A stretch of 64,000 nt of DNA, from the NCBI GenBank assembly GCA_024875585.1, contig GCA_024875585.1_4107.1, one strand, 5' to 3'. Both the position numbers and the translations under genes were made by a program. This document shows, piece after piece, positions 1 through 64,000 of this stretch (positions within the stretch are counted from its first letter, which is position 1; each line of letters opens with the position of its first letter). This stretch comes from a phage. The notes under the pieces are model-generated. The model was not told the origin of the DNA, ran no database searches, and saw only the letters and a program-made list of their open reading frames with translations.

Positions 1-92
1 AATTGAATCATATAATGTACAAGAACTTGATGTGAACAGTATTAAGTAGTATAATAAATAATAATATATTATATGTTAAAGGAGGGCACACG

Positions 93-1334
93 ATGCCTAG
101 TGATTATAATAATGGTGATATGAAGCACAGAAATGGTGCAATTGTTCAACATTCAAAACGCAAGTCGGAGTACCGCCCTGCTGGAAACTATCATAGTGGT
201 AGAAAAATGAGTCGTAACCAAAGCACTGGTGCACAAGGTGTAGAAAATGCAAAGCCAGGTGAAGTAACAGATACTTCCAAAATGAATCAACATGAAAAAT
301 TAAAATACATGAATGCTTTGGGATTACTTAATGCTCATCAAAAAGAGCAACTAGCTGCAATGGATAAAGCACAAGAACGACCAGAAGCAGCAGAAGCCCC
401 CGCACAATCAAAAGCGACTAACCCTGTCAAAGAACTGTCTGATAAGTTAGGTAAGATCTTTGCAAATAAACCCCAACTTATTCAAGGTATTGTCAAAGAA
501 TTGCAATCTGTACCTAAAGAAGAATTAAAAGTCAAAGCACAAGCTGTTCTGGATGCAATGAAAGGAAACACCAGTACTGAACCAACCGAAGTATTCAGTA
601 CTATTATGCGTGCACTGGAAGGTAAACAACAAGGTGAAGAACGTGGTGATGAAGTAAGTCTTGAACGTGTTCTTAAAACATTTGATAGTATTGGGAAAGA
701 AGACCGTGTTAATGCACAACAGGTTAAAAATGTACTAGCAAAATTGGAAAACCGTCTAGAAGGTAAAGATGATAAGATTAAATTGGTATCCGATGCAGTT
801 GAAAATGCACTTAAATCTTATGTACAAGGTGAAAAGAGTCGTTTTGTAACTGCTATGGATGCTGCATTCAATACTATGAAAAAGTACGAAGCGGATCATG
901 GAGAGAAGGTAACACGAGATGGTTATTTGATGCGTGATGATGAAGAAGGTGCAGTGGAACAGAATGATGTTCATTCTGACGAAGATATTGATGACATGGA
1001 AGCAGAACTGTCACAGGACCGCCAAATGACTGAAAAATCTCACAATGAACTAAAGAAATTAATGCAGTGGGTTGCAGACGTAGGTGAAAAGGCGGGTGCT
1101 GACAAGAAGAGTATCAACCGAAACCTAAGTTGGATTAAAGATAAGGTTGGTAATAACGCTCGTAAACTACAAAAAGCATGGACTGATGTAGTGAATGGTG
1201 CAGTAGATATTGACGTTGAATCTGGTGAAGCATATGATTATGCATTGATTACACTTGATGATTCTTTTCGTGACTACGAAAAAGGAAACGTGACTCCTTG
1301 GGAAAAAGACATAATGAGCAAATACGGTAAATGA
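93..1334 (+). CDS. hypothetical highly charged protein (413 aa)
   Basis: long ORF; SD AAGGAGGG 7 nt before ATG; terminator hairpin follows stop. Confidence 0.7.
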   Translation: MPSDYNNGDMKHRNGAIVQHSKRKSEYRPAGNYHSGRKMSRNQSTGAQGVENAKPGEVTDTSKMNQHEKLKYMNALGLLNAHQKEQLAAMDKAQERPEAAEAPAQSKATNPVKELSDKLGKIFANKPQLIQGIVKELQSVPKEELKVKAQAVLDAMKGNTSTEPTEVFSTIMRALEGKQQGEERGDEVSLERVLKTFDSIGKEDRVNAQQVKNVLAKLENRLEGKDDKIKLVSDAVENALKSYVQGEKSRFVTAMDAAFNTMKKYEADHGEKVTRDGYLMRDDEEGAVEQNDVHSDEDIDDMEAELSQDRQMTEKSHNELKKLMQWVADVGEKAGADKKSINRNLSWIKDKVGNNARKLQKAWTDVVNGAVDIDVESGEAYDYALITLDDSFRDYEKGNVTPWEKDIMSKYGK

Positions 1335-1343
1335 TAACAAAAA

Positions 1344-1367
1344 GGTTGACTTCGGTCAGCCTTTTTT
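1344..1367 (+). terminator. rho-independent terminator (GGTTGAC-UUCG-GTCAGCC hairpin + T6)
   Basis: stem with UUCG tetraloop then TTTTTT just after stop of 93..1334; stem contains TTGACT. Confidence 0.65.
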
Positions 1368-1375
1368 GTTATCAT
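1346..1375 (+). promoter_or_regulatory. candidate promoter with -35 TTGACT inside terminator stem, -10 TATCAT
   Basis: TTGACT-N18-TATCAT; same architecture repeated at other terminators. Confidence 0.35.
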
Positions 1376-1400
1376 AGCTTTCCTAACTACAAAGGATGAC

Positions 1401-2045
1401 GTGATGACTAAGCAAGAAATATTCAAAACATTAATTGACATTTTACGTTCATCTAAAACTCGTTGTGCAATGGAGTTTGATATTCCTTACGCTGAACGAG
1501 TCATCTTTCCACAAGTAAAAGAGGCAGGGCTTACTTTACTTGGTATGGGGATGTACTCTGTAGTAGTTGAACATAAAAACTATCCAGGTCGTGCATTTAA
1601 AGTAACCACGTCACGATGGGATGGTTTTCGTGCTTATGCAAAGTACTGTATTGATAACACAGGAACTAAGTTTCTTCCTGTAATATACAGTGCAAATGAA
1701 CAAGGAAACTTTGGATGGTATGAAATGGATAAGTACTACCCTATCATTAAACAAAAAAATAATTATGATGACTTTGTTAGTACTAAAATTGGAGATTTGT
1801 ATTCGTATGCACATGCTGGTCAGCACGTAACTTCAGTGAATGAACTGCGTGGAAATTCAGAAGAGATTGCAATTGCAACTGTTGTAGCTAACATAATGAA
1901 AGAGTTTCATGGTCGTTTTGTACCAGACATTCATTCCAGTAATGTAATGATGGATAAAGATGGAAATTTATTCATCACTGACCCTATTTCGTGTGATGTA
2001 CGTCGAGAAATACCAATCACTGAAGAAGACCCAATTTTTTATTGA
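1401..2045 (+). CDS. atypical protein kinase-like protein (214 aa)
   Basis: Gly-rich loop LGMGMYSVV, Lys in RAFKV, catalytic-loop-like DIHSSN, ITD (DFG-like); SD AAGGATGA. Confidence 0.45.
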   Translation: MMTKQEIFKTLIDILRSSKTRCAMEFDIPYAERVIFPQVKEAGLTLLGMGMYSVVVEHKNYPGRAFKVTTSRWDGFRAYAKYCIDNTGTKFLPVIYSANEQGNFGWYEMDKYYPIIKQKNNYDDFVSTKIGDLYSYAHAGQHVTSVNELRGNSEEIAIATVVANIMKEFHGRFVPDIHSSNVMMDKDGNLFITDPISCDVRREIPITEEDPIFY

Positions 2046-2108
2046 CAGAACTTGTGTTCTGGTGTATATTAAGTGAATTATAAACAAATTGTGACACAGG
2101 ATTAAATC

Positions 2109-61978: not shown

Positions 61979-62402
61979 AAAAGCAAAAGAAATACATGGA
62001 TACTTTGAAGATATAAAGGCAGGAAAGTTCAAAGAAGTATACAAAGCCGAGAACGGTAACTACTACAAAGATGAAATATATAATAATTCCGTTGGTGTAA
62101 GGGTTATTCTTGAGTTGAATTCCAATAGTCCTGTGTCGTTTTCTGAATACAATAGAGATGCAGAATTCATTAGTTATGTTGAAAATGGTAGCATTCGTTT
62201 TATTAATAGACAAAAACCATTAATTTTGAATTATGAAGTTCTGGATGGTCAGTGGGATAATGAAGAGTATTACTTCCAAAACAGTACTGTATACGACGAT
62301 GAAGTACTTGAAGCATTAGTTATTATGTGGTACTTCAAGAGTATTAACTGTCCTCGATTTTATTTGGATTTCGAAGAACTTGGTAAAGATCCAGAGGTAT
62401 AG
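61956..62402 (+). CDS. family B protein, MSLQSAL subfamily (148 aa)
   Basis: motif EEYYFQNSTVYD...MWYFKS. Confidence 0.65.
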   Translation: MSLQSALEKAKEIHGYFEDIKAGKFKEVYKAENGNYYKDEIYNNSVGVRVILELNSNSPVSFSEYNRDAEFISYVENGSIRFINRQKPLILNYEVLDGQWDNEEYYFQNSTVYDDEVLEALVIMWYFKSINCPRFYLDFEELGKDPEV

Positions 62403-62403
62403 A

Positions 62404-62718
62404 ATGAAAAACTTATTCAGTGTTCAGTACGTTCCAGGTGAAATTAGTTTATTGTATCTCTTTGACCATGATAATTCATTATTACTAGTAGTAAAGAAAT
62501 GTCAAGCTAGTTCGTTTGTTGAATACATTCACGATAATGAATATATACCTGATTTTTTAGAGTGCGATTATTACGATGATCATGAATCATTTATTTTTCA
62601 GGAATCGCTAGTATGGGACAAATCGATTAACTTCTTTACGTTAATTGAATTACAAAAGCAAGTGAAGTATCATTGGGATTATTTAATTACACAGGATTAC
62701 ATTGAGATAGAAATATAA
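62404..62718 (+). CDS. family B protein (104 aa)
   Basis: motif ESFIFQESLVWD; ATG just after upstream stop (track start 62380). Confidence 0.55.
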   Translation: MKNLFSVQYVPGEISLLYLFDHDNSLLLVVKKCQASSFVEYIHDNEYIPDFLECDYYDDHESFIFQESLVWDKSINFFTLIELQKQVKYHWDYLITQDYIEIEI

Positions 62719-62960
62719 TGACTAAAAATGAATTTGATTCACTTTGTACTGTTTATAATTCATTAACAGAAATACCTAACTTTATTAGTTATATTTCAGC
62801 TTTAAATCACATTATGCATAGTTTTGAACAATCGTTTGAAGAGAAATATGCTGGAAGAAAAGTTCTATGTCATATGCCAATGTACTTAGGAGATGGTGAG
62901 CCTTACACTACAAGTACTACATGTGAAATAAAAAATATAATATATTATTGGGTACTATAG
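62718..62960 (+). CDS. hypothetical small protein (80 aa)
   Basis: TAATG-coupled ORF. Confidence 0.45.
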   Translation: MTKNEFDSLCTVYNSLTEIPNFISYISALNHIMHSFEQSFEEKYAGRKVLCHMPMYLGDGEPYTTSTTCEIKNIIYYWVL

Positions 62961-63021
62961 AATTCACAGTATCCAATGGCGGTAGTTATATGTACTTTAG
63001 AGATGGAGTGGTTGAATTATT

Positions 63022-63471
63022 ATGAGTTACGAAAGTGCAATCAAGAAAGCAAATGATATTCTACGCGTCGTTCAATTCTTCAAAGAAAATCCTGAATACG
63101 TAGATGATAAAAACCAAGAGCACGATGAGAGATTGAGACGAAAAATTATCTCTTTATTTGACACTAATAAAGATAATTGGAGTCTAATTGAGTTAGCATA
63201 CGATTATATTTCATTGAACCGAAATGATGATGTAGTTAAGATAGAAAGGCATGAGTCAGAAGAATCTTTTAGAATTTCAGATATTTTATCCCTGAGTACT
63301 GAAGAAGGGTACTTCCAGGGTAGCACTCTTTATAATGAAGAAACACTTGACAATCTATGCACATTCAGTGTAATATATCAGAAATCTGTACTAGATATAT
63401 TTTATCTTGACACTGCTGAACTGCATACCCTAACCAATTTTGTTACTACCGAAGAGGCTACATTCGAGTGA
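63022..63471 (+). CDS. family B protein (149 aa)
   Basis: motif EEGYFQGSTLYNEETLD; N-terminus MSYESAIKKAND. Confidence 0.6.
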   Translation: MSYESAIKKANDILRVVQFFKENPEYVDDKNQEHDERLRRKIISLFDTNKDNWSLIELAYDYISLNRNDDVVKIERHESEESFRISDILSLSTEEGYFQGSTLYNEETLDNLCTFSVIYQKSVLDIFYLDTAELHTLTNFVTTEEATFE

Positions 63472-64000
63472 TGAAAGTTAACATTAATGACTTTGATGCA
63501 TTACAAGATTTATCAAAAAAGATTCGCACCATCGTACCAGTACTTAAAAAATGCAGTACTGGTTTAATCGATCCTAGTTCTGTTGTCAATGAGAAGTACA
63601 ATTTTCATCGTGTATTACAGGGGACAGGTGCATTTCAGAAGTGTGAGGTACGTGAGAAACATGTAATTGATACATCGTTGTTTTCTATTGGTGCACCTGT
63701 GTCAAACAATACTATTTTCCTGGATGCCGCTGGAAATATTCAACAATTAACATTTAAGAAAAGGAAAAAGAATAATAACATTGGTGTGTACGAGATGAAG
63801 TGGGGACAGCCAGAGTTGATGCGTGACATTCACATTCCTAAGTACAATTTCAATGCATTTGAAGAACAGTGTTTTCAACTTTCTTGTACTGACCCTGACT
63901 ATGCTATCATTCAATTCTATATGGAATTGCAGATTGCATTTAATAGTAATTTGTATATTAACTTATTGGCAATGAACATAGATGAAGTATTCAAAAACAT
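63471..64000 (+). CDS. family B-like protein, 3' end beyond window (partial)
   Basis: ATGA-coupled ORF open to window end; motif EEQCFQLSCTD. Confidence 0.5.
   Translation, partial: MKVNINDFDALQDLSKKIRTIVPVLKKCSTGLIDPSSVVNEKYNFHRVLQGTGAFQKCEVREKHVIDTSLFSIGAPVSNNTIFLDAAGNIQQLTFKKRKKNNNIGVYEMKWGQPELMRDIHIPKYNFNAFEEQCFQLSCTDPDYAIIQFYMELQIAFNSNLYINLLAMNIDEVFKN

Follow-up and report, generated by a model that had tools for sequence, protein, structure and literature searches.

The palindrome AGTACT is strongly enriched and under purifying selection in Asteriusvirus and related jumbo phages, with fixed registers in early promoters

Introduction

Why should a phage genome that has lost many restriction-type palindromes carry hundreds of copies of one of them? 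The question is raised by a stretch of phage DNA of 64,000 nucleotides (GenBank assembly GCA_024875585.1, contig GCA_024875585.1_4107.1), which is called the window below, and in which the hexamer AGTACT, the recognition site of ScaI/Eco255I, is scattered through genes and non-coding DNA. A megablast search assigned the window (G+C content 34.6%) to Asteriusvirus, a genus of 121Q/PBECO4-like jumbo myoviruses that infect E. coli and have ~350 kb genomes; the nearest record was phage UE-S1 with about 96% identity, and phage 121Q matched with about 88%. An earlier note on this DNA had drawn attention to the hexamer, had located it in early promoters, terminator stems and coding sequences, and had proposed that it is either recognised by a DNA-binding factor or modified, possibly by an N6-adenine methyltransferase encoded in the window. 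Here we examine the excess, its maintenance in related phages and the candidates for its reader.

Results

Enrichment of AGTACT in the window

The window contains 225 dispersed copies of AGTACT (1..64000, strand not assigned), while 100 dinucleotide-preserving shuffles gave 19.6 +/- 4.2 copies with a maximum of 32. AGTACT is the most over-represented hexamer in the window (z about 47) and the sole enriched 6-bp palindrome; it occurs at 11.6x expectation and the runner-up palindrome at 1.9x. The preferred extended form is the 8-mer CAGTACTG, with 46 copies. The over-representation was stronger than first described, and the at least 17 copies reported for the non-coding island at 24726..26650 turned out to be exactly 17, against about 0.6 expected. 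Based on approximate gene calls, 130 sites lie fully in coding sequence (131 are counted inside gene sequences) and 95 are non-coding. The 225 sites have 194 distinct contexts of +/-20 bp and are therefore not copies of one repeat. A dispersed repeat family, REP/MITE-like or in the form of a duplicated cassette, was rejected on this count.

Other palindromes show the opposite trend. In the window 24 of the 64 six-bp palindromes have zero copies, against ~98 expected for them in total. GCGC is absent from both strands of the complete 121Q genome (348 kb), where 354 copies are expected, and GGTACC and CGTACG are absent as well. These zero-copy palindromes beside the enriched AGTACT mean that the genome is an example of classical restriction-site avoidance, with AGTACT as the one exception of reversed sign.

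Coding copies and whole-genome spread

The enrichment persists within genes. Against the 131 coding copies in the window, synonymous-codon shuffles yielded 36 +/- 5 or 46 +/- 6 and codon-order shuffles 22 +/- 5, and the excess is present in all three frames. The same holds for the complete 121Q genome, which has 903 copies against about 100 expected (9x); each 10-kb bin contains 11-65 copies, including the bins with late structural genes, against about 2.9 expected. Its 746 coding copies are a 3.5-fold excess over within-gene synonymous shuffles (213 +/- 11), with frame counts of 364/145/238 against 111/38/65 in the shuffles. The coding copies are spread evenly along the length of genes, and a -10-like hexamer follows only 19 of the 746. 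The enrichment therefore extends beyond the promoter consensus, and the outcome that would have refuted the earlier note, an excess limited to that consensus, did not occur. An explanation by promoters alone was rejected, since 130 of 225 sites in the window and 746 of 903 in 121Q are coding. The many coding copies mentioned in the earlier note are thus real, and above what the encoded proteins require.

Specificity and selection

Each single-mismatch neighbour of AGTACT is enriched by at most 2.1x and none is depleted, which identifies the exact hexamer as the functional unit and leaves no signature of repair-driven conversion. A mutational drive resembling very-short-patch repair was rejected for the same reason, and because C-to-T changes are not in excess at diverged sites. 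AGTACT has two-fold symmetric flanks, in which position -1 is C in 46% and G in only 8% of the sites, positions -3/-4 are T-rich and positions -7 to -10 are A-rich. This symmetry indicates recognition of duplex DNA by a symmetric reader.

The sites are also conserved. In an alignment of the window with 121Q, 95 of 114 coding sites were kept (83%, compared with 56% of background hexamers; p about 1e-9) and so were 82 of 91 non-coding sites (90% compared with 61%; p about 3e-10). The identity per base is 0.94-0.98 inside AGTACT and 0.85-0.92 around it, and the adjacent flanks show no extra conservation. AGTACT is a DNA-level feature under purifying selection. Together with the coding excess, this supports at the DNA level the view, already taken in the earlier note, that the enrichment implies a function. 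Over a larger distance single positions are lost: between RaK2 and 121Q (about 70% identity) 14 of 65 aligned sites stand at a conserved position, against 16% of background, and the density is equal. The pattern is that of numerous sites under weak selection, whose positions turn over while their density is kept. Of the hallmarks of a highly iterated palindrome, a genome-wide excess in all frames that is shared by relatives and selected in them was found.

Distribution among phages

High densities of AGTACT were found in several genera of jumbo phages. A 50 kb late region of the Klebsiella phage RaK2 (Alcyoneusvirus) has 119 copies (9.9x), a 50 kb early region of the Cronobacter phage GAP32 (Mimasvirus) has 253 (18x), and 30 kb of the Pectobacterium phage CBB (Mimasvirus) has 104 (12.5x). 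We also scanned IMG/VR with the two-site promoter pattern AGTACT-N15-16-AGTACTNTATAAT, which returned 29 loci. AGTACT was at background on the small contigs with single matches; all pattern loci on contigs of 354-378 kb (about ten contigs) and on one contig of 109 kb had 13-31x AGTACT. The related Pseudomonas phage PA5oct had 4 copies in 50 kb (0.3x), and a 50-kb sample of E. coli K-12 had 11 (0.22 per kb).

The coliphage phi92 has no AGTACT in its positions 1-50000, where 15 are expected, and its GTAC count is at expectation. This lack suggests an AGTACT-specific restriction pressure in E. coli hosts.

The motif is mentioned neither in the genome papers of CBB, RaK2, Sharanji, UE-S1 or fEgEco12 nor in the results of full-text searches. 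With no description found in the searchable literature, the AGTACT motif of these phages is apparently new.

Early promoters in the terminal repeat

The left physical end of phage fEgEco12 has been set by PhageTerm and restriction mapping (PMC13070987). This end maps to position 24,988 of the window, inside the non-coding island, so that the window spans the joined genome ends; the end of the fEgEco12 direct terminal repeat (20,993 bp, ~21 kb) maps to ~45,055. According to these limits the AGTACT-dense promoter array is the terminal-repeat region. The equivalent region of the window (24988..45055, + strand) contains ~40 strong sigma70-type early promoters, small open reading frames (ORFs) and 118 copies of AGTACT (5.9 per kb). 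The 1.9 kb island at 24726..26650, for which no strand was assigned, is kept at 85-93% in about 35 Asteriusvirus records; searches with Rfam and ARAGORN found no structured RNA or tRNA in it.

On the + strand of the window 74 promoter-like sites match at least 10 of 12 consensus positions, and in 38 of them AGTACT occurs at a few fixed registers, counted here from the first base of the -10 hexamer to the start of AGTACT. The most frequent register is -7/-8 (21 cases), in which AGTACT is followed by G/T and TATAAT or provides the TG of an extended -10. Register -27 occurs in 10 cases as AAAAAGTACTTGCAA, register -17/-18 in 5 as TTGACAGTACT, register -30 in 4 as AGTACTaTTGACA and register -38 in 3. 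Two or more copies are present in 15 promoters. About a quarter of all AGTACT sites stand at fixed registers in sigma70-type early promoters. The placement of the hexamer in the early promoter consensus was thus confirmed, and the strings given for it are present, AAAAAGTACTTGCAA seven times and AGTACTGTATAAT eleven times (three times as CAGTACTGTATAAT).

Three designs recur on the + strand. In the two-site promoter at 30032..30064, AAAAAGTACTTGCAA, whose site abuts the -35 element TTGCAA, is followed by a spacer and by AGTACTGTATAAT, whose site lies at -19..-14 and abuts the -10 element; the same design is found at 34400-34432 and 37528-37560. A second two-site design, AGTACTaTTGACA-tagattgat-AGTACTGGCATAAT with starts 22 bp apart, is located at 32817..32852 and again at 33112-33147, 35774-35809 and 42941-42976. 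The third has the register of TTGACAGTACT, in which AGTACT and the 3' edge of the -35 element overlap (36834..36861, again 37262-37289 and 43270-43297); related forms at 40350-40378 and 40627-40655 have two AGTACT 16 bp apart. The two-site design recurs in the early promoters of GAP32, where 21-22 bp separate the starts, and both the registers and the 21-22 bp pairing are common to Asteriusvirus and the GAP32/CBB-type phages. Pooled distances between AGTACT sites at 15 loci of the early region, taken from the window, GAP32, CBB and further jumbo-phage contigs, have a single sharp maximum at 18-23 bp, where 146 pairs compare with an expected 39.

The promoters that contain AGTACT have near-consensus -35 and -10 elements. 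It follows that they need no activator, and the overlapping AGTACT sites fit operators: we found both fixed positions that overlap the core elements and pairs of sites.

The terminator stems fared less well. The string proposed for them, CCAGTACTGG, is present twice, but of 20 terminator-like hairpins in 24-44 kb only the one at 25540..25573 (+ strand) has copies of CAGTACTG as its arms, which makes this role marginal.

In a second class of promoters the -35 element TTGACT belongs to a terminator hairpin rich in G+C (AAAGGGTTGACTttaGTCAGCCCTTTTT), with GCTATAAT or GCTATTAT behind it, so that terminator and promoter overlap. Its loci are 1347-1375, 5859-5887, 9255-9283, 10539-10567, 34863-34898, 38270-38307, 41279-41314 and 43570-43605. 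In addition, many early promoters are preceded by a recurrent element, ...CCCAnAGGGTGCGGGAGTGTATC..., that folds into a hairpin with G-U pairs (26271-26290, 34930-34960, 38350-38384, 41345-41380), and short G+C-rich hairpins, for example GGGGAGAAATGGTTCTCCCC, lie just 3' of early-promoter -10 elements. These hairpins recall the promoter-stem-loop cassettes of T4-type phages. A + strand block of ORFs of ~60 amino acids at 21200-24700, shortly ahead of the genome end, has 6.3 AGTACT per kb; its G+C skew of about -0.22 resembles that of the RCC1-like genes beside it on the minus strand.

AGTACT deserts and the variant AGTACA

Shortly downstream of the terminal repeat, two parts of the window (45056-49780 and 52101-59100, together 11.7 kb) contain only 3 AGTACT; the rate of the rest would predict about 50. 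The first desert (45056..49780, + strand, 2 copies) comprises the first ~20 members of a tandem family of genes for proteins of ~70 amino acids. In the whole array at 45121-51555, which has 26 such paralogous genes, stop and start codons overlap; AGTACT is missing from the first ~20 members and dense in the last ones. The second desert (52101..59100, + strand, 1 copy) carries AGTACA instead, extended as CAGTACAG(G), with about 35 copies on the coding strand (35 inside called genes) and 0 on the other. All three frames are used (13/11/11 in called genes, against 13.4 +/- 3.2 in synonymous shuffles). The same pattern occurs at 160-170 kb of 121Q; across the window and 121Q the coding strand has 35-48 copies, and the other strand of 121Q has 2. 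In the rest of the genome AGTACA shows a mild coding-strand excess. A recent import was rejected as the cause of the deserts, which match Asteriusvirus genomes only.

Methyltransferases

The ORF at 8408..9244 (+ strand) encodes an accessory gamma-class N6-adenine DNA methyltransferase with the motifs YYTKP, EPCVGTGSF and NPPF; it had no Pfam match and only a partial methyltransferase match in PHROGs. It belongs to an accessory module at 6797-9244, which also comprises a GmrSD_N (DUF262) ORF and an HNH ORF of 70 amino acids that overlaps it by a few bases. The module looks like a phage-borne type IV restriction-like nuclease together with a methyltransferase. When the complete 121Q genome was searched with tblastn, control proteins matched but no homologue of any of the three genes was detected, and the module was not found in the UE-S1 stretch compared. 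The motifs of the proposed AGTACT modifier are therefore real, but an enzyme that is missing from a relative with 903 AGTACT cannot explain a feature of the whole clade.

The methyltransferases of 121Q itself are a C5 methyltransferase and a Dam-family enzyme. The former is closest to the DNMT3 catalytic domain, is kept in CBB and RaK2, and has a homologue with 51% identity in phi92-like phages without AGTACT. Bisulfite sequencing revealed CpG methylation in RaK2 DNA (PMC3622015). AGTACT holds neither CpG nor GATC. The C5 enzyme was hence rejected as an AGTACT methyltransferase, given its DNMT3-like domain, the CpG methylation of RaK2 and its homologue in AGTACT-free phi92. A cognate methyltransferase with its target inside the palindrome, as might accompany a highly iterated palindrome, was not found among the core enzymes. 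Since these are of the CpG and Dam types, a modification at AGTACT appears unsupported by the gene content. Ten restriction enzymes gave the predicted cuts in virion DNA of fEgEco12, a set that did not include ScaI or RsaI.

Search for a phage-encoded reader

Pfam searches with the ORFs of 21-45 kb returned only DUF7249, a DksA/TraR zinc finger, GNAT, ParE-like and RCC1-like domains and a weak DUF1033. Candidate early ORFs for the reader are those at 26712-27074, 27521-27787, 33606-33875, 35029-35424, 40408-40626 and 41827-42099. The early proteins that are conserved across genera, which are candidates too, are of 'unknown function' in PHROGs, save for one weak partial 'DNA ligase' match (35029-35424); PDB searches with early proteins gave no match, and homologue searches found close relatives only. 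A single-sequence AlphaFold model of an ORF of 72 amino acids at 40408-40626 reached a predicted local distance difference test (pLDDT) score of 47, too low for the model to be used.

This ORF is the second in a pair at 40099-40626, behind a ParE-like toxin-domain ORF of 84 amino acids that is kept in 8 contig groups. Its promoter has two AGTACT 16 bp apart, and the same design precedes a kinase-like ORF at 40683. Five paralogous RCC1-like beta-propeller genes lie on the minus strand at 14940-21167, and 121Q has about 14 of them. They are labelled 'DNA condensation' in relatives and have AGTACT at the ordinary genome-wide density.

Discussion

The selected, exact and clade-wide nature of the AGTACT excess asks for a reader. 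As a tentative answer, which we place slightly below an even chance, we propose that AGTACT is recognised by a putative clade-specific dimeric DNA-binding protein, for which it would be both an early-promoter operator and a mark dispersed over the genome. AGTACT, preferably as CAGTACTG, would be a cis-acting site on double-stranded DNA for a symmetric, probably dimeric, sequence-specific protein that may be conserved in the enterobacterial RaK2-like jumbo phages. We infer that the reader is a protein, that the phage encodes it, and that it represses at promoters. In the terminal repeat its sites would overlap contacts of RNA polymerase, at -19..-14 upstream of the -10 element or abutting the -35 element on either side, with paired starts 21-22 bp, or about two helical turns, apart. 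These fixed registers over polymerase contacts and the pairing are the reason to read the sites as early-promoter operators, which would most likely serve as an off-switch after the early phase. The ~650-750 further solitary copies, ~1 per 400 bp and kept across coding sequence by weak per-site selection, could be a genome-wide mark or loading sites of the same protein, for example in coating, organising or self-recognition of phage DNA.

Several observations weigh against such a protein. No recognisable DNA-binding domain was detected among the ORFs of the terminal-repeat region with Pfam, PHROGs or PDB. A contiguous palindrome of 6 bp is short for a classical helix-turn-helix repressor; most of the sites are solitary, and an all-or-none specificity for a hexamer is more typical of restriction/modification enzymes. 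The overlapping terminator-promoter units, a sigma70-like class, are devoid of AGTACT. The strand-specific AGTACA of the second desert is not predicted by a symmetric duplex reader, which leaves room for a component at the level of single strands or RNA. Finally, the host range could be explained just as well by a host factor.

Such a host factor would be specific to Enterobacterales (nucleoid-associated, division-related or RNA polymerase itself), and the phage would recruit or titrate it. The enriched phages do infect Enterobacterales (E. coli, Klebsiella, Cronobacter and Pectobacterium), while Pseudomonas phage PA5oct is at 0.3x, and the promoter registers coincide with the contact zones of sigma and the alpha subunit. 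One candidate is SlmA, as AGTACT is the centre of its E. coli binding site GTGAGTACTCAC. However, the outer GT/AC of this site is not enriched here: 348 kb contain 4 loose matches to GT.AG..CT.AC and none to the full site, and the flank of the SlmA type, G at -1, is the least used (8%). SlmA sites were rejected on these grounds. We know of no other host protein with specificity for AGTACT. The 727 of the 746 coding sites that lack an adjacent -10-like element are not sites for RNA polymerase. The coliphage phi92, moreover, avoids the hexamer completely, which speaks against any host reader. We therefore consider a host reader unlikely. A phage enzyme that modifies AGTACT, with a density selected for protection or for a temporal marking of phage DNA, is to our mind equally hard to favour and perhaps a shade less probable. 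It would account for the all-or-none specificity for a 6-bp palindrome, which is typical of type II modification enzymes; cyanobacterial HIP1 palindromes, which are linked to methyltransferases, are a precedent, and the absence of AGTACT from phi92 hints at a restriction pressure that these phages would need to escape. Yet the N6-adenine methyltransferase of the window has no counterpart in 121Q, the hexamer contains the target of neither core enzyme, and the C5 homologue of phi92 resides in an AGTACT-free phage. Furthermore, AGTATT/AATACT are not depleted, diverged sites have no excess of C-to-T changes, the ten enzymes tried on fEgEco12 virion DNA cut normally (ScaI and RsaI were not tried), and protection alone explains neither a 9-fold enrichment nor fixed promoter registers. 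Of the two roles offered in the earlier note, recognition by a sequence-specific factor thus stays the best reading, and a modification site for the enzyme at 8408..9244 does not.

The AGTACA data raise the question whether a single strand is read, as DNA or RNA, with AGTAC as the core of a signal for nicking, priming, recombination or RNA processing; the palindrome would then serve both strands. Where AGTACT is missing, AGTACA occurs 35-48 times on the coding strand and 0-2 times on the other, in all frames and above synonymous shuffles, and a mild coding-strand excess exists elsewhere. Outside this stretch, however, the palindrome is enriched 9x and AGTACA/TGTACT only 1.8x, the flanks of AGTACT are symmetric relative to the direction of transcription, and many sites lie in promoter spacers upstream of transcription starts; with about 90% of the genes on one strand an RNA signal would have no need of a palindrome. 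We judge this explanation unlikely, a little more so than a host reader or a modifying enzyme. Least probable by far is a passive by-product, in which copied promoter cassettes, codon or dipeptide usage, or a bias of mutation or repair would have multiplied a functionless hexamer. Some cassettes are indeed duplicated, with context families of up to 9 members, and the synonymous-shuffle expectation (36-46) exceeds that from codon-order shuffles (22), so part of the signal comes from the protein sequence. The diversity of contexts, the 3.5-fold excess over synonymous shuffles in all frames, and the fact that sites are kept more than their flanks with no neighbour hexamer depleted all speak against it, as does a density that is kept across genera sharing little DNA identity while PA5oct and phi92 are depleted. 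This explanation is largely refuted.

A wider version of the proposed clade-specific reader, which we regard as rather doubtful, would make AGTACT a mark of viral 'self', comparable in a phage to Chi or uptake sequences. With ~900 copies the genome is about 12-25 times denser in AGTACT than the 50-kb sample of the host chromosome, and recognition could coat, organise or spare phage DNA during the shut-down or degradation of host DNA. The terminal repeat, which would enter first, would be marked most densely, and the same protein would time the early promoters.

By analogy, the closest known systems may be cyanobacterial HIP1 and global phage regulators such as phi29 p6 or SPO1 TF1. HIP1 (GCGATCGC) is likewise a short perfect palindrome in many-fold excess genome-wide, with ~1 copy per few hundred bp, in coding and non-coding DNA and all frames, and it is kept across relatives with positional turnover. 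It differs in being 8 bp long and chromosomal and in holding targets of resident methyltransferases, whereas the viral 6-bp AGTACT contains no core methyltransferase target and has fixed early-promoter registers. Chi, DUS/USS and KOPS, which mark 'own' DNA for a specific protein machine, share the hundreds to thousands of dispersed copies and the weak per-site selection; they are asymmetric 8-12-mers with strand polarity, unlike the palindromic AGTACT. A polar genome signal was rejected for this reason, since the flanks are symmetric and strand-specificity is limited to the local AGTACA.

Like AGTACT, the sites of phi29 p6 and SPO1 TF1 and the T4 MotA box are phage signals in or beside sigma70-type early or middle promoter elements. 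The proteins p6 and TF1 couple whole-genome binding to the repression of early promoters, but they read DNA shape or modified bases and not an exact hexamer; the MotA box, which takes the place of the -35 element, has no symmetry. No homologue of these regulators came up here, though none was looked for. SlmA sites share the central AGTACT and belong to an enterobacterial protein; in these phages, as described, the outer bases do not fit. The pre-early region of T5 resembles the present one in its dense strong host-polymerase promoters and tiny ORFs in long terminal repeats, here a direct repeat of ~21 kb. In contrast to T5, for whose repeats we know of no iterated palindrome, AGTACT is iterated here, and these phages are not known to inject their DNA in two steps. 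Restriction-site avoidance is obeyed by the same genome for other palindromes; for AGTACT its sign is reversed to a 9-18x enrichment.

A restriction-type palindrome at 9-18x expectation across at least three named genera is a strong and unusual sign of function, the more so as other palindromes of this type were purged and phi92 is free of AGTACT. The excess points to a sequence-specific reader that touches ~40 early promoters of the terminal repeat as well as the whole 350-kb chromosome. If the self-mark were true, it would mean that a large phage without a nucleus-like compartment and without bulk modification of its bases tells self from non-self by sequence. Once found, the reader would bear on the programming of early transcription, and possibly on the discrimination or organisation of DNA, in jumbo phages that do not form a nucleus. 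The motif together with its protein would also offer a handle for the engineering of these phages, which are candidates for therapy.

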